64,000 bases of DNA from an uncultured Candidatus Saccharibacteria bacterium (GTDB taxonomy: Bacteria > Patescibacteriota > Minisyncoccia > RBG-13-40-8-A): assembly GCA_965231075.1 (NCBI GenBank), contig OZ246412.1, positions 91,903 through 155,902 on the forward strand. Reading direction: 5' to 3'. Below the pieces are notes generated by a model. It was not told the origin of the DNA and did not search any database. It saw only the letters and a list, made by a program, of their open reading frames with translations. Below, in pieces: positions 2,881 through 7,765 of this stretch (its first letter is position 1; every line of letters starts with the position of its first letter). Position numbers and translations under genes: made by a program.

Positions 2881-2949
2881 AAAAATTAAAGTATGGTAAT
2901 ATAAAATATAAGAATTAACTTGCCCCGCCATGGCGGGGTGAATAAAAAT

Positions 2950-3309
2950 ATGAAAAAAATATTCAAAAGATGGTGGTTTTGGGTTATTGTCGTAATAATT
3001 TTAATTTTTGTATTGTACAACTTTTTTATTAAAGGATTGATTGAATTAAATAACGAAAAATTATGCAAAAATGCGGGCGGAAAATGGGGTCTTTGGAGTA
3101 ATCTAAGGTCGCGTGGCTACGAATGTAATTTGCCGACATCCGACGCCGGAAAGGAATGTACCGACTCAAGTCAATGCGAAAATTTTTGTCAGGCGCCAGA
3201 AGAGGCAAAAGAGGGCTCAAAAGTCGTGGGTAAGTGTTATGGATTTCAAAAATCGATTGGAAGGCAAGAAGTAAAGAATGGAATTGTTGGTGGCATAAAG
3301 ATCCAATAA
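2950..3309 (+). CDS. hypothetical membrane-anchored Cys-rich protein
   Basis: One N-terminal TM helix (WWFWVIVVIILIFVLY) then a Cys-rich soluble part. Start taken at the internal Met of ORF 2920..3309. Confidence 0.4.
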   Translation: MKKIFKRWWFWVIVVIILIFVLYNFFIKGLIELNNEKLCKNAGGKWGLWSNLRSRGYECNLPTSDAGKECTDSSQCENFCQAPEEAKEGSKVVGKCYGFQKSIGRQEVKNGIVGGIKIQ

Positions 3310-3384
3310 TGCTCGAGATTTAAATATAATGAAATAAATTTCATCTTTAATGGTATAATAAGATATAATCATTAATCCCAAAAC

Positions 3385-3669
3385 ATGAAAACACAAAAAG
3401 CAAACACAGAAAAGTGTCACGATTGTGGCAAAGAAATAAAAGTTATAAATGATGAACTAAAAAATGGTAAAGTTTTAGTTTACGACGATAATGGCAAAAA
3501 AATAACAATTATCAAATGCGATAGCTGTTATGAAAAAAATCCTGGATTAACAAATTTTAAAGAATGTGAGGTTTATTCAAGAATTGTCGGATATATTCGA
3601 CCGGTACAACAATGGAACAAAGGAAAACAACAAGAGTTTAAAGAAAGAAAAGAATTCGCTTCGTGTTAA
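3385..3669 (+). CDS. stand-alone NrdD C-terminal-like domain (zinc ribbon plus glycyl-radical motif)
   Basis: CHDCGKE...CDSCYE zinc ribbon followed by SRIVGYIRPVQQWNKGKQQEFKERK. This matches the conserved C-terminal Gly-radical segment of class III anaerobic ribonucleotide reductase (RxxGY...WNxGKxxEFKDR). Only 94 aa; no catalytic barrel. Confidence 0.55.
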   Translation: MKTQKANTEKCHDCGKEIKVINDELKNGKVLVYDDNGKKITIIKCDSCYEKNPGLTNFKECEVYSRIVGYIRPVQQWNKGKQQEFKERKEFASC

Positions 3670-3698
3670 AAAATAATTTTTAAAATAAACAAAAAATC

Positions 3699-3724
3699 TC
3701 GTAAATACGAGATTTTTTGTTTAG
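3699..3724 (+). terminator. intrinsic terminator
   Basis: Hairpin atctcgtaaatacgagat followed by tttttg, downstream of the 3385..3669 ORF. Confidence 0.5.
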
Positions 3725-3726
3725 AA

Positions 3727-3798
3727 TAGCGCTACGGGGAATCGAACCCCGATTGACAGATTGAAAATCTGCTGTCCTAACCGTTAGACGATAGCGCC
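3727..3798 (-). tRNA. tRNA-Glu (anticodon TTC)
   Basis: Manual cloverleaf: acceptor GGCGCTA/TAGCGCT, D-stem GTCT/GGAC, anticodon loop TTTTCAA, T-arm CGGGG-TTCGATT-CCCCG. Confidence 0.8.
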
Positions 3799-3867
3799 AT
3801 AAATAATTATTTTAATCATAACAAAAACATTGATTTTAATCAAGAAAAAAGGTAAAATGAGAATGTT

Positions 3868-3938
3868 GCGGGATTAATACAGTGGTAGTATGCGACCTTC
3901 CCAAGGTTGATGCGCCAGTTCGATTCTGGTATCCCGCT
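3868..3938 (+). tRNA. tRNA-Gly (anticodon CCC)
   Basis: Acceptor GCGGGAT/ATCCCGC, anticodon loop TTCCCAA, T-loop TTCGATT. Confidence 0.8.
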
Positions 3939-3940
3939 GT

Positions 3941-4012
3941 GCCGCCTTAGCTTAGTGGTAGAGCAATTGTTTCGTAAACAATAGATCCTCAGTTCGATTC
4001 TGAGAGGCGGCT
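3941..4012 (+). tRNA. tRNA-Thr (anticodon CGT)
   Basis: Acceptor GCCGCCT/AGGCGGC, anticodon stem ATTGT/ACAAT with loop TTCGTAA, short variable arm, T-arm CTCAG-TTCGATT-CTGAG. Confidence 0.8.
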
Positions 4013-4055
4013 CAAAATTAGAATTTCTATTATTTTAGATATATAATGAAAGTAT

Positions 4056-5897
4056 ATGAAAAAAATTATGAACGAAGGCGAACATTTTCTCCACAAAAAA
4101 TATTCTGACCTCCACACTTCTCAACCCGTAGAACACGCACAACAAGAGAAAAAGAAAAAAGGAGAGTCAACATCACAAAAACCAGCAGATAAAATATCTG
4201 ACTTTCTTGAAGTAATTAAAAGAACCCACGGTCATCACGATGATCCACAAGTATTAGAAAGAATCAAAGAATATTATCATAAACAATACGTCATTAATCC
4301 CGAAGACGTCCCCGAATCATATTTTGATAATCAAAAACGTCTAGCCAGAGAACAAGGACACGGAGATATTGAAATCACCGACGAGATGCGAAAACAGGCC
4401 ACAGAGATAATCATTACCGACCAAGAATCAACTTTAGACAATTGGACGGAATATCTTTCTTCCAAAGATGCTGATGTTTATCCGGTCTGGGCAAGATACT
4501 GGGCATTCAGAAGCATGGTTAATCTTTCCACCTACGACAAAGAAAAGAAAGTATTCTCCAAACGAAAAAAAGATACAGTTGCTCCTTTTCCCGATTTAAA
4601 TCGTGAAGCATTGGCCAATGTCGTAGATATTATTACTAAAAAAGCAAAAAAAGAAAAAATATCATTAGCCGAAGATAATCCAGAATTACAAGAACTAATC
4701 AATCAAGAAAACTTCGGCAAGCTTTATGCTTACGCCATAGAAAAGATTACACCCACCGAAGTTAATGAATTAGAGATAACTGAAGGTAAATGGGTAAAAT
4801 ACAAACAAAATTCAGATCATATGCCATTGGTAGAATCTTTACAAGGATTTGGCACTGGTTGGTGCACAGCAGGAGAGTCAACGGCCGAGGCACAACTTAA
4901 AGGAGGTGATTTCTACGTCTATTACTCTAACAACAAACAAGGCAAGCCAATTATTCCCAGAATTGCTATCAGAATGCAGGGAAGCGAAATCGGAGAGGTG
5001 AGAGGCATTGCTCCAGATCAAAACTTAGATCCATACGTTAACGATATCGTTAAACAAAAACTACAACAGTTTCCTGACGGTAAACTTTACGAAAAGAAAC
5101 AAGCGGATATGAGGAAACTTACAGAAATCGATAACAAAAACAAAAAACAACAAGAATTAACCAAAGACGATTTAATTTTTCTTTACGAAATCGATTCTCC
5201 GATTCAAGGCTTCGGTTATCAAACCGATCCAAGAATAGTAGAAATACGAAAAACCAGGAATCCAATACAAGATGCACCAATTGTTTTTGAATGTGAGCCA
5301 AGTCAAATTGCCCACAATCAACAAGAAATCAATGAAAATACCAAAGCATATATTGGTCCGTTATTCGAAAATATTTTTCAATTAAATTTAGAGCACATTT
5401 ATACATCATTTCCGGAAAACAAAATCAGAAAGATGGAGACAACGATTGGAGGAAAAGACAAGACACAACTTTTAAAAGAGTTAAAAAAGAACAAAATCAA
5501 TATTGGTGATAATGCCGAATACATGATTAAGAGTGGTGATTTTACAACCTCCAAAAAACAAGAACAAATACAATTAATACGTTTAACAGTTGGTGACCTC
5601 GGTTTTCCAAATAGTGCCACAACACAACAAATATTCGATAAGGCCGAAAAATTAGGCCTAGAACTGTGTCCGGCGGAAACAGGTCCAAATTTACGACTAA
5701 ATTATTTAGATCAACCATTGGGAGAATGGTTTCGAATTGCGATGAAACAAATTACTGATGCCGATGGCTTCCCTCACGTGTTCAATCTGCATCACGTTGG
5801 CAGTGGTCTGTGGTTGGATGACTATTGGGCCCGTCCTGTCATCATGTGGAATTCTGCCCACAAGTTCGTATTCCGCTTTCGCAAGTTGAAAACTTAG
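4056..5897 (+). CDS. DGR target protein (613 aa) with C-terminal variable region
   Basis: Long ORF with no recognisable signal peptide. Its last ~45 codons (ITDADGFPHVFNLHHVGSGLWLDDYWARPVIMWNSAHKFVFRFRK) are an adenine-mutated copy of the TR. Confidence 0.8.
   Translation: MKKIMNEGEHFLHKKYSDLHTSQPVEHAQQEKKKKGESTSQKPADKISDFLEVIKRTHGHHDDPQVLERIKEYYHKQYVINPEDVPESYFDNQKRLAREQGHGDIEITDEMRKQATEIIITDQESTLDNWTEYLSSKDADVYPVWARYWAFRSMVNLSTYDKEKKVFSKRKKDTVAPFPDLNREALANVVDIITKKAKKEKISLAEDNPELQELINQENFGKLYAYAIEKITPTEVNELEITEGKWVKYKQNSDHMPLVESLQGFGTGWCTAGESTAEAQLKGGDFYVYYSNNKQGKPIIPRIAIRMQGSEIGEVRGIAPDQNLDPYVNDIVKQKLQQFPDGKLYEKKQADMRKLTEIDNKNKKQQELTKDDLIFLYEIDSPIQGFGYQTDPRIVEIRKTRNPIQDAPIVFECEPSQIAHNQQEINENTKAYIGPLFENIFQLNLEHIYTSFPENKIRKMETTIGGKDKTQLLKELKKNKINIGDNAEYMIKSGDFTTSKKQEQIQLIRLTVGDLGFPNSATTQQIFDKAEKLGLELCPAETGPNLRLNYLDQPLGEWFRIAMKQITDADGFPHVFNLHHVGSGLWLDDYWARPVIMWNSAHKFVFRFRKLKT
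5751..5886 (+). repeat. DGR variable region (VR)
   Basis: ~136 bp nearly identical to 6239..6376. Differences in the unambiguous core all fall at positions where the TR has A (VR has T, C or G), mostly in TR AAC codons. The 3' ~35 bp (gtggaattctg...ttccgctttcg) is conserved and IMH-like. Boundary nucleotides at each end are ambiguous. Confidence 0.8.
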
Positions 5898-6008
5898 AAA
5901 CCTTAAAGCTTTATAATTTAGTTTCTTTGATGCTTTGGTTCTTTGACACTTTGAAATTTTGTAGTTTTTTGATAAGATTGAATTGGGTAAATTGCATTGG
6001 ACGGTTGC

Positions 6009-6031
6009 GCCTGCTTTCTGGCAGACAGGGC
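6009..6031 (+). other. hairpin 1 between VR and TR
   Basis: gcctgctttctggcagacagggc, imperfect stem cctg..tctg/caga..cagg, followed by a T-rich run. Confidence 0.4.
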
Positions 6032-6080
6032 TTTTCAAAATTTTCTCAACAAACATAAATTGAGAGCGCAAACGGCTAAG

Positions 6081-6108
6081 CCTGCCTGTCGGCAGACAGG
6101 GTTTTTTG
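6081..6108 (+). terminator. intrinsic terminator-like hairpin 2 (stem shared with hairpin 1)
   Basis: cctgtc-ggca-gacagg stem-loop followed by ttttttg. Confidence 0.5.
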
Positions 6109-6238
6109 CGGAGTAGTTTATGTTTTGTTTCAAAAAAGAAAAAACTTGGTATATCGTGCTGGTTGATTTTAGATCACAAATAAAATACAGCCCAACATCT
6201 TAAAATTATGTGGGCAGTGCTATAGATGGCACGATATA

Positions 6239-6376
6239 TATAACTGATGCCGATGGCAACCCTAACGTGTTCAATCTGAATCACGATGACAATGGTCTGT
6301 GGTTGAATGACAATTGGGCCAATCCTGACAACAAGTGGAATTCTGACAACAAGTTCGTATTCCGCTTTCGAAAGTA
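6239..6376 (+). repeat. DGR template region (TR)
   Basis: Adenine-rich invariant copy of the VR. Sits in spurious ORF 6210..6596, where AAC (Asn) codons replace the varied VR codons. Confidence 0.8.
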
Positions 6377-6391
6377 TTATCTTTTCCGTGC

Positions 6392-6760
6392 TTATAAGGC
6401 ACGGTTTTTCTTTTCTGGATTATTTAAACTTTTTAGCCAACCACCAAATATTTTTCCAATTTCGTCTAACTTTAGTGCGATTTCTTCACATTGTTTGTGT
6501 GATATTAATTTACTCGTCCATGCCACAGAAACGAGAAACTTGAGAGCGTCCAATAAAAGAATACACTTTGGGATATTGGTTATTTTTATTTCTTGATTAG
6601 AAAAATAAGTCGTGTAAGTTAACTCCAAAAAATCCAAAAGCTTATTCTCTATTCTTTCGCCAATAGTATAACGATTGTGTTTCGGCATATGCGGAATAAT
6701 ATTTAGCCATATTAAATACGCTTCTTTGATTCTTTCCAAAATAGAAGTATTATTTGTCAT
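6392..6760 (-). CDS. avd: DGR accessory variability determinant (Avd, four-helix-bundle protein)
   Basis: 122 aa with the pattern ERIKEAYLIWLNIIPHMPKHNRYTIGERIENKLLDFLEL...ALKLDEIGKIFGGWLKSL, typical of bAvd / four-helix-bundle proteins. Lies between TR and RT. Confidence 0.75.
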   Translation of the reverse strand: MTNNTSILERIKEAYLIWLNIIPHMPKHNRYTIGERIENKLLDFLELTYTTYFSNQEIKITNIPKCILLLDALKFLVSVAWTSKLISHKQCEEIALKLDEIGKIFGGWLKSLNNPEKKNRAL

Positions 6761-7765
6761 ATGTATAATAATATCATATCAATTGAAAACTTGCTTTTAT
6801 CGTGGCAAGAATTTTTAAGAGGCAAGCGTAAAAGAAAAGATGTGGCGGAATTCTCTTTGAAGTTTTTTGATAATATTATAAAACTTCATCAAGAATTAAA
6901 ATTAAAAACCTATAAACATGGCGGGTATCAGGCGTTTAAAATAAATGATCCAAAACCACGCGATATCCACAAGGCCAGTGTTCACGATAGATTGGTTCAT
7001 CACGCCATATATCGAATTTTATATCCACATTTTGATAAAAAGTTCATTTTTGACTCCTATTCTTGCCGTTTAGAAAAAGGCACACACAAGGCGATAAATC
7101 GTTTTAGGAGTTATTATCGAAAGGTTAGCAAAAACAACACCAAAACTTGCTGGATTTTAAAATGCGATATTAGAAAATTTTTTGCTAACATAGATCATCA
7201 GGTTCTTAAAGATGTTTTGGCAAGACACATTAAAGATAAAAATGTTTTATGGCTCTTGGCACAAATTATTGACAGCTTTAATACGGAAAAGAAGAATGAC
7301 GTTGGCCTTCCGTTGGGCAATTTGACCAGCCAGCTTTTCGTAAATATTTATATGAACGAATTTGATCAATTCATTAAAAGAAATTTGAAAATCACACATT
7401 ATATTCGTTATGCGGACGATTTTATTGTTTTACACACGAACAAATCATATTTGGAAGCGATAATTATCATAATGTTTAAGTTTTTGAAAGAACAATTAAA
7501 GCTCGACCTGCATCCTGATAAAATTTTTATAAAAACTCTGTTTTCGGGAATTGATTTTTTGGGCTGGGTTAATTTTTATTATCATCGAATATTGCGAACC
7601 GCAACAAAACGTAGAATGTTAAGGAATATTAACAATAAACTTGAACCAGGGAGCATTGCATCGTATTTAGGATTGCTTTCGCACGGAAACACTTATGAGC
7701 TTTCGTCTCTTTTGACTTTATTATTTTTAAGGTATAATGATAAGTACGATGACAATTCAGGATAA
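6761..7765 (+). CDS. DGR reverse transcriptase
   Basis: RT motifs present, including YADDF (YxDD). Motif 4 reads LPLGNLTSQLF, the DGR-type replacement for the group II intron QGxxxSP. N-terminus has the DGR-RT-like IENLLLSWQEFLRGKRKRKDV. Confidence 0.9.
   Translation: MYNNIISIENLLLSWQEFLRGKRKRKDVAEFSLKFFDNIIKLHQELKLKTYKHGGYQAFKINDPKPRDIHKASVHDRLVHHAIYRILYPHFDKKFIFDSYSCRLEKGTHKAINRFRSYYRKVSKNNTKTCWILKCDIRKFFANIDHQVLKDVLARHIKDKNVLWLLAQIIDSFNTEKKNDVGLPLGNLTSQLFVNIYMNEFDQFIKRNLKITHYIRYADDFIVLHTNKSYLEAIIIIMFKFLKEQLKLDLHPDKIFIKTLFSGIDFLGWVNFYYHRILRTATKRRMLRNINNKLEPGSIASYLGLLSHGNTYELSSLLTLLFLRYNDKYDDNSG

Follow-up and report, generated by a model that had tools for sequence, protein, structure and literature searches.

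A stand-alone gene for a glycyl-radical module of the anaerobic (class III) ribonucleotide reductase (RNR), NrdD, lies near the start of a 64,000-nucleotide stretch of DNA from an uncultured Candidatus Saccharibacteria bacterium (GenBank assembly GCA_965231075.1, contig OZ246412.1, positions 91,903 to 155,902 of the forward strand), the whole of which was analysed and is referred to here as the window. The 94-aa product of this open reading frame (ORF) is probably an autonomous glycyl-radical cofactor protein of class III RNR, and its most likely role would be that of a spare part for NrdD enzymes that have been cleaved by oxygen. The evidence consists of the domain identity of the protein, the conservation of its family, its co-occurrence with intact NrdD and the activase NrdG, and selection acting on the radical loops of both proteins; moreover, certain other NrdDs depend on the small protein, and in other lineages the small gene is linked to oxidative-stress genes. 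Activation by NrdG, docking on NrdD and rescue after oxygen damage are steps that we infer from these comparisons. A preliminary description of this DNA had suggested, by analogy with GrcA/YfiD, a replacement radical domain for NrdD, and comparative genomics supports such a spare-part reading, the rescue step itself being a prediction.

A stand-alone NrdD-type module in the window

The ORF, which has an ATG start and a TAA stop, comprises a zinc ribbon, a radical loop, a C-terminal helix and a terminal cysteine (Table 1). It had been described as reproducing just the C-terminal signature of NrdD with no catalytic barrel, and this proved correct: the match to the Pfam family NRDD (PF13597) is significant and confined to positions 509-562 of 562 in the profile, corresponding to residues 9-91 (E=3.4e-12, 46 bits; gathering score 26.2), and the residues that had been named are all present. 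NCBIfam NrdD models are likewise matched at their C-terminal ends only, far under their whole-protein cutoffs, as with positions 541-580 of 581 in TIGR02487 (E=5e-11; 41.8 bits vs a cutoff of 326). Measured against the defining features of NrdD, the protein lacks the alpha/beta barrel of ten strands with its thiyl-cysteine finger loop. It does possess, by its sequence, a C-terminal Cys4 zinc site ahead of the radical loop, with a spacing unlike that of the resident NrdD, and a glycyl-radical motif R-x-x-G-Y close to the C-terminus (RIVGY, with Gly69 as the predicted radical glycine). A further cysteine, C61, stands ahead of EVYSRIVGY, so that the loop reads CEVYSRIVGY; in 40 aligned relatives the zinc cysteines, C61 and the loop vary little or not at all. 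Neither Gly_radical (PF01228) nor a GrcA model matched the protein at E<=1 in Pfam and NCBIfam, the significant matches being to NrdD models only. On these comparisons, the small protein is confirmed as the zinc-ribbon and radical-bearing tail of NrdD alone.

The absence of nrdD and nrdG from the window, also noted in the preliminary description, is borne out by two kinds of search. Translated searches (tblastn) of the full 64 kb with seven NrdD, three NrdG, one NrdR and class I NrdA/NrdB queries gave matches at 3490-3660 only, and Pfam scans of the largest ORFs in the window revealed no RNR domain. A degraded NrdD body flanking the ORF at 3385-3669, which would have pointed to a pseudogene, was looked for and none was found.

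The resident NrdD and NrdG

Full-length nrdD and nrdG are encoded elsewhere in the genome. The exact 94-aa protein (P0391) and an intact 699-aa NrdD (P0534) share their sources, NCBI and Logan, as well as the length of their longest contig, 626,281 bp, and run SRR12133403 contains the two of them; P0391 also occurs on Logan contig SRR12133403_5450 (L091), where the gene order is the same as in the window. P0534 was found among the members of the top cluster from a search with the NrdD of locus L049, whose loop is closest to that of the window protein, and this search returned Portnoybacteria NrdDs. P0534 scores 1100 bits on NF006126 (cutoff 548) and is followed, 5 nt later, by a 232-aa NrdG2 equivalog (228 bits, cutoff 131), the pair standing in a canonical block of FtsA-FtsZ-NrdD-NrdG-ComEC.

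Relatives of the window genome present the same picture. The closest relative, whose small protein (P0003) is 87% identical and whose local synteny is the same as that of the window, carries, on a single record (ERZ795059 NODE_103_length_123465), an intact NrdD-NrdG pair (P0521) ~40 kb upstream of the small gene. Since the window starts only 3.4 kb upstream of the small gene, nrdDG would fall outside it. A Staskawiczbacteria genome provides a further case, a 737,971-bp contig on which ~310 kb separate the small gene from an intact NrdD. Thus, intact NrdD and NrdG were found in all three of the genomes with a detached small gene that could be checked. Another Portnoybacteria NrdD, P0496, came from samples other than those of P0003 and gave no link.

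Selection on the radical loop

Counted from C61, 30 of 31 residues and 79 of 93 nucleotides agree between the window protein and P0534, with synonymous differences at 11 of the 30 codons for common residues. The Staskawiczbacteria pair is comparable, with 28 of 31 loop residues identical and 12 synonymous differences. Identity that persists despite synonymous codon changes indicates that the loop is held by selection and is not the leftover of a recent duplication. In ten genomes with both genes, the 33-aa loop segment of the small protein is 0.79-0.91 identical to that of its own NrdD, as compared with a median identity of 0.67-0.70 to 48 other NrdDs, and the organism's own NrdD ranks 0-3 of 48. 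Such matching is what one would predict for two loops that have to be accommodated by one barrel socket and one activase.

The zinc ribbons are, in contrast, unrelated in build. The small protein has CHDC, a hairpin of ~30 aa and KCxxC, whereas NrdD has CPxHGY, ~10 aa and CPxC (CPTHGY...CPKC in P0534). An AlphaFold2 (AF2) model built with a 40-sequence alignment, of moderate confidence (mean predicted local distance difference test score, pLDDT, 64.7), places a beta-hairpin at residues 28-35/38-45 in the ribbon, a strand at 62-64, the Gly69 loop, a strand at 71-73 and a helix at 74-87; at that confidence, the layout resembles the expected finger with the glycine at its tip, followed by a helix. 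The family profile matched no PDB sequence at E<=0.01, and the single protein gave a marginal match to the LysW zinc ribbon only. For a related resident NrdD, the alignment with the solved NrdD structure 8p23 extends over the zinc site and the RITGYL radical loop.

These data bear on whether the ORF is a gene remnant, that is, a pseudogene fragment or the last exon of an interrupted nrdD, as the preliminary description had also considered. Its homology is indeed limited to the 3' end of nrdD, and some phage contigs do have short loop-only ORFs near NrdD bodies. Against this, the 64 kb hold no NrdD body, the ORF has its own start and terminator and a ribbon not derived from that of the resident NrdD, its family numbers hundreds to thousands of members under strong purifying selection, and a separate intact nrdD exists in the genome. 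The window tblastn, the family search, the separate nrdD and the codon comparison of the loops together refute the idea, and we regard it as almost certainly wrong.

A family of stand-alone modules

Stand-alone small proteins of 80-170 aa form a large and real family that spans bacteria of the candidate phyla radiation (CPR), Desulfobacterota, anaerobic methanotrophic (ANME-1) archaea and phage contigs. A search over 5.8 billion clustered proteins produced 1231 cluster hits, the best 120 of which are all 86-131 aa long, with the organism-named ones belonging to Portnoy-, Staskawicz- and Nealsonbacteria. An exhaustive HMMER search of the family profile against 1.84 billion representatives at 50% identity yielded 453 at E<=1e-10, and the best 150 of these are all 42-211 aa. 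The local order of genes is kept in close relatives of the window genome, answering the earlier question of synteny. A scan of one genome per GTDB species, which also caught ordinary full-length NrdDs through the common loop motif, found stand-alone genes of 81-166 aa across several lineages; the hosts include CPR lineages, Desulfobacterales, Syntrophales, Thermodesulfobacteriota, metagenome-assembled genomes labelled 'Bdellovibrionales' and one Methanophagales (ANME-1) archaeon.

All the key residues of the module are conserved in the family. Invariant in a 40-member alignment are the four zinc cysteines, E62-V-Y-S-R, V68-G-Y, R72-P, W77, K81, E84 and R88, and 201 of 210 small-family members have CxxC...CxxC. 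Cysteine in the C-terminal tail is enriched: at least one is present in 41% of the 210 small proteins vs 16% of 281 full-length NrdDs, and at least two in 31% vs 4%. In the databases, members of the family are labelled 'anaerobic ribonucleoside-triphosphate reductase' or 'hypothetical'.

Around 35 stand-alone modules were found on IMG/VR viral contigs (L092-L137), with no NrdD, NrdG, Fur or superoxide dismutase (SOD) gene within +-6 kb of them. Some are flanked by PHROGs for large terminase, head morphogenesis or protease, endolysin and endonuclease VII, and it is through such neighbouring PHROG hits only that the viral status of individual contigs was judged. IMG/VR also holds many loop-only ORFs of 40-90 aa, some beside NrdD bodies, and those near phage NrdD bodies may represent genes split by introns or inteins.

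NrdDs without a glycyl loop of their own

Three arrangements of the small gene can be distinguished: next to a loop-less NrdD (A1), next to an intact NrdD (A2), or detached, with nrdD and nrdG both absent from the surrounding +-10 kb (B/C), the window being of this last type. The first arrangement occurs in nine species genomes (L016, L023, L024, L028, L030, L034, L037, L062 and L084). Here, NrdD stops shortly past its own zinc ribbon (CPxHGY...CPKC), without the glycine motif, and the small gene comes next; in most of these loci an NrdR gene precedes NrdD, and in L016, L028, L030, L037, L062 and L084 an NrdG-type activase directly follows the small gene. RVVGY is found in these operons in the small protein only. 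At L016, for example, NrdD consists of an ATP-cone and positions 1-536 of 562 in the NRDD profile (Pfam, NCBIfam), and the ~235-aa protein downstream has Radical_SAM and Fer4_12 domains and is a TIGR02495 NrdG2 equivalog (215 bits, cutoff 131). One candidate for a nearby RNR, cluster 23, turned out to be a P-type ATPase and was rejected.

In an alignment of eight truncated and eight intact NrdDs, the truncated proteins retain 235-250 of the 267 columns that are invariant among the intact ones, including the motifs MCCRLRL (the thiyl-cysteine finger loop), TLQGE, NLEATPGE, YYTNSSQLP, KYTGGTV and PTFSICP, and at the site of the glycyl loop they have only degenerate relics (TVYLKVV, EVFLKVG, EVVRKVCC). 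The pairing, without exception, of a conserved barrel whose loop has decayed and a small protein whose loop is perfect implies that in these lineages the radical would be supplied in trans; among the comparative data, it is the most telling support for the mechanism proposed below. The small protein would there be an obligatory radical subunit instead of a spare, in effect one half of a two-subunit class III RNR. The window genome has no such split enzyme, as the loop of its own NrdD is intact.

The second arrangement, with an intact NrdD adjoining the small gene, is also found in nine genomes (L018, L020, L031, L032, L038, L039, L041, L043 and L045), of which at least L018, L038, L039, L041, L043 and L045 continue with an NrdG-type activase. 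These loci, together with the loop-less NrdDs that must rely on the small protein, raise an alternative in which the small protein is the normal or preferred NrdG substrate and radical donor even where NrdD is intact, giving a routine two-component enzyme; in the second arrangement the small gene, as far as can be seen, lies between nrdD and nrdG and is probably co-expressed with them. Yet in the window genome and two others of the detached type, the loop of the resident NrdD is perfectly conserved under purifying selection, which would be pointless for a loop that is never used, and detached genes elsewhere sit in PerR-like/SOD/rubrerythrin operons and not with nrdDG. As an account of the window gene, routine service as a subunit therefore seems unlikely. 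An intact NrdD in the window genome makes a spare part the most likely role for the module.

Several variants of NrdD genes were observed alongside these arrangements. Ribbon-less mini modules directly follow the truncated NrdDs of L062 (1665-1856, 63 aa) and L084 (9887-10114, 75 aa), the latter ORF beginning 2 nt past the NrdD stop, where a frameshift or an insertion is possible. Long NrdDs of 1030-1260 aa are found in several CPR bacteria and archaea (P0374, P0471, L055, L059, L079 and L086), and intein/LAGLIDADG Pfam marks in P0374 and P0471 indicate that nrdD is there a frequent target of mobile insertions.

Links to oxidative stress in other lineages

A Pfam scan of the 89 immediate neighbours of 25 detached loci placed FUR (7), Rubrerythrin (4), Fe/Mn-SOD (3) and Desulfoferrodoxin (2) at the top, these being raw counts without phylogenetic correction; oxidative-stress genes occur in at least four different types of operon layout. 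In one, a Fur-family gene, the small gene, an ORF of 52-85 aa and SOD follow each other (L001, L007 and L011); in another, the Fur-family and small genes precede a rubrerythrin/EncFtn-like gene and desulfoferrodoxin (L009 and L014); and in a third, the small gene is followed by rubrerythrin (L010 and L044). The Fur-family neighbours best match PerR models (86-100 bits), as compared with 53-59 bits for Fur and about 30 for Zur, with scores that are under the curated cutoffs. Upstream of several of the Fur-small-gene operons there is a recurrent 7-1-7 palindrome, ~TTTRTTA-N-TAATAAA, with the layout of a Fur/PerR box, for which chance matches are possible in such AT-rich genomes; sites were seen upstream of the Fur-family genes in L001 (9325-9445), L007, L009, L011 and L014, and upstream of the small gene in L013. 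For the window gene, the link with stress would be one of homology only.

Two further observations concern these loci. The 52-85-aa ORF between the small gene and SOD is conserved and has no Pfam family (L001 10301-10492, L007 10337-10495 and L011 5219-5476). At L001 in Staskawiczbacteria, a class I RNR (NrdA with an ATP-cone, and NrdB) is encoded at 3746-7319, 2.7 kb from the PerR-like/small-gene/SOD operon, so that this organism has both class I and class III RNR plus the small module.

It is conceivable that the module does not restore activity at all but acts as a regulator or decoy, competing for NrdG or capping the barrel and thereby throttling deoxynucleotide (dNTP) synthesis or parking NrdG during oxidative stress. 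A near-identical loop means that NrdG would recognise the module, and linkage to oxidative-stress operons would also fit a protective shut-down. This idea, which we judge improbable, gives no account of the loop-less and catalytically intact NrdDs that are paired with a small gene, as such enzymes need a radical donor. Less probable still is co-option of the zinc ribbon for zinc or redox sensing within a PerR regulon, with the tail kept for binding and no radical on Gly69. Adjacency to Fur-family regulators and the enriched C-terminal Cys/Cys-Cys tail, which has no counterpart in the resident NrdD, would suit such a sensor, but the radical-loop motif is invariant in its entirety, with the glycine, and follows that of the resident NrdD, and at six in-operon loci NrdG comes directly after the small gene.

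Proposed mechanism and its strength

For the NrdDs of E. coli and T4, it is documented that oxygen cuts the activated enzyme at its radical glycine. In general, activated glycyl radical enzymes are cut irreversibly by oxygen, with the backbone cleaved at the radical glycine (PMC13450708, PMC8683613). In the spare-part mechanism proposed here, the resident NrdG, a radical S-adenosylmethionine enzyme, would abstract hydrogen from Gly69 as it does from NrdD's own glycine. The activated module would then dock its radical loop in the NrdD barrel, close to MCCRL, the finger loop with the thiyl cysteine, and give its radical to NrdD in trans. Barrels whose C-terminal loop oxygen had cleaved would in this way be re-armed, and re-synthesis of the 699-aa enzyme would be saved.

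Several points weigh against this proposal. Every step of the mechanism is a prediction from comparison. In the window, the small gene has no PerR or oxidative-stress neighbour and is placed between UvdE and tRNA genes, and the Fur-type 7-1-7 box of the other lineages is not found there; the palindrome that does occur upstream of the gene, at 3330-3345, differs from that box in sequence, so PerR control cannot be claimed. In nine genomes, the small gene falls within the nrdD-nrdG cluster, a position as compatible with routine use as with an emergency. An oxygen-cleaved NrdD would also still have its zinc ribbon and the strand that leads up to the glycine, complicating the docking of a second module that bears a ribbon. 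A Foldseek comparison of the AF2 model with the PDB returned only weak noise from zinc-finger and ribosomal proteins, probably because the domain folds on docking. Finally, the link from the window to the 626,281-bp contig is indirect, resting on an identical protein, an equal contig size and a common run.

More broadly, and with a little less assurance than for the window protein itself, we favour the view that the modules are a widespread family of autonomous glycyl-radical cofactors for class III RNR whose role differs by lineage: a spare part in some, an obligatory subunit in others, and in phages a module that would re-arm the host enzyme. In this scheme, the spare-part type is detached and often found in PerR-type oxidative-stress operons, and the window genome is placed with it.

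Relation to known systems

The closest parallel is GrcA/YfiD, the spare part of pyruvate formate-lyase (PFL) in E. coli, which is likewise a small, stand-alone protein that reproduces only the C-terminal glycyl-radical domain of a large enzyme (PMC8683613, PMC13450708). Both are encoded away from the client enzyme, in genomes that also have the intact enzyme and its activase, and the predicted logic, read here from sequence, is also alike: the activase of the client would activate the module, which would replace the loop cleaved by oxygen. Like a GrcA-type protein, the 94-aa product is essentially one glycyl radical domain, with its own start, stop and terminator, and a client with a near-identical loop, plus activase, is present in the window genome and on single contigs in two relatives. 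The two are not homologous, however, as GrcA/YfiD belongs to IPR011140 and PF01228 and the module derives from the radical domain of NrdD. A Cys4 zinc ribbon takes the place of the disordered N-terminal half of GrcA, the client is a ribonucleotide reductase instead of PFL, and in some lineages that client has lost its loop completely, which is not known for PFL.

Y06I of phage T4, a GrcA-like PFL spare part, is paralleled by the viral members of the family, which lie on viral contigs with no client enzyme or activase nearby, but its domain is of the PFL type and theirs of the NrdD type. The C-terminal domain of NrdD itself (1H7A, 4COI/4U3E and 8P23) shares with the module the zinc site, C-E-V-Y-S-R-x-V-G-Y and then W-N-x-G-K-x-x-E-F; the module differs in having no catalytic barrel, no ATP-cone, another build of ribbon and an extra C-terminal cysteine. 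In lineages with a truncated NrdD, the pairing of a catalytic subunit with a separate radical polypeptide recalls class I RNR, with its catalytic NrdA and radical-bearing NrdB, although the module has no homology to NrdB and would carry a post-translational glycyl radical and not a metallo-cofactor/tyrosyl system.

For glycyl radical enzymes destroyed by oxygen, GrcA/YfiD is the one repair strategy known. A review of June 2026 restricts spare parts, among glycyl radical enzymes, to the formate lyases and leaves open whether they exist elsewhere, and the same statement is made in a 2021 study of rescue (PMC8683613). Full-text literature searches returned no description of an NrdD spare part, of a split or truncated radical domain of NrdD, or of NrdD in Parcubacteria or the CPR.

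Genomic context of the small gene

The genes around the module run TsaD(-), UvdE(+), a Cys-rich ORF of 129 aa, the small gene, tRNA-Glu(-), tRNA-Gly and tRNA-Thr, and the features of the region are collected in Table 1. A perfect palindrome, ATGAAAT-AA-ATTTCAT, at 3330-3345 overlaps the -35 area, and an extended -10 element, TGGTATAAT, is located at 3351-3359; we infer a promoter role for the two from their sequence only. The hairpin downstream suggests that the small gene is monocistronic, and at 3693-3716 it could terminate transcription in both directions. A consensus promoter/terminator scan called neither the putative promoter nor the hairpin terminator of the small gene.

Table 1. Positions of the module gene, its parts and adjacent features in the window
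Feature	Positions	Strand	Basis
Gene for the 94-aa stand-alone NrdD-type glycyl-radical module	3385..3669	+	ORF list, Pfam NRDD
Zinc-ribbon part: C11-x2-C14, beta-hairpin insert of ~30 aa, C45-x2-C48	3415..3528	+	Family alignment, AF2
Glycyl-radical loop and following helix, C61-EVYSRIVGYIRPVQQWNKGKQQEFKERKEF	3565..3657	+	Comparison with P0534, AF2
Codon of Gly69, predicted radical glycine (RIVG*Y)	3589..3591	+	Invariant alignment column; matches the glycine of NrdD R-x-x-G-Y
C-terminal Cys94	3664..3666	+	Tail Cys enriched in the small family, none in the resident NrdD
Putative own promoter	3330..3359	+	Palindrome found by script; extended -10 read from sequence
Terminator-like hairpin, AAAATCTCG-TAAATA-CGAGATTTT, then T-run	3693..3722	+	Read from sequence; between the small gene and tRNA-Glu (-)
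Diversity-generating retroelement (DGR): target gene, 613 aa	4056-5897		
DGR: variable repeat, 3' end of the target gene	5744-5886		
DGR: template repeat	6233-6375		
DGR: bAvd	6392-6760	-	
DGR: reverse transcriptase	6761-7765		

The neighbouring features are of interest in their own right. The 129-aa ORF between UvdE and the small gene (2920-3309) is hydrophobic in an N-terminal segment and rich in cysteine in its C-terminal half; it belongs to no Pfam family, and the relatives L003-L006 lack it at this position. Directly 3' of the small gene, a tRNA cluster at 3726-4013 comprises tRNA-Glu (-), tRNA-Gly-CCC (+) and tRNA-Thr-CGT (+). Just beyond it, a complete diversity-generating retroelement occupies 4056-7765. 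Its two repeats differ at 21 positions, 18 of which are template adenines. Compared with the P0003 loci L003-L006, the cassette is inserted DNA.

Significance

If the proposal is true, the module would be the first strong candidate for a spare-part system of a glycyl radical enzyme other than pyruvate formate-lyase. What is novel is the carrying of the spare-part concept to another glycyl radical enzyme by way of a non-homologous module, together with what would be a two-subunit NrdD in some lineages. Anaerobic RNR, which makes the precursors of DNA, is the most universally important of the glycyl radical enzymes, and a candidate for it is now defined in sequence; moreover, the loop-less NrdDs amount to natural 'experiments' that make the spare-part hypothesis directly testable. 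Recognition of the family would also correct the systematic mis-annotation of hundreds to thousands of database entries. In terms of the organisms themselves, the module may be part of the reason why DNA synthesis in ultra-small CPR bacteria, in sulfate reducers and in ANME archaea continues through transient exposure to oxygen.

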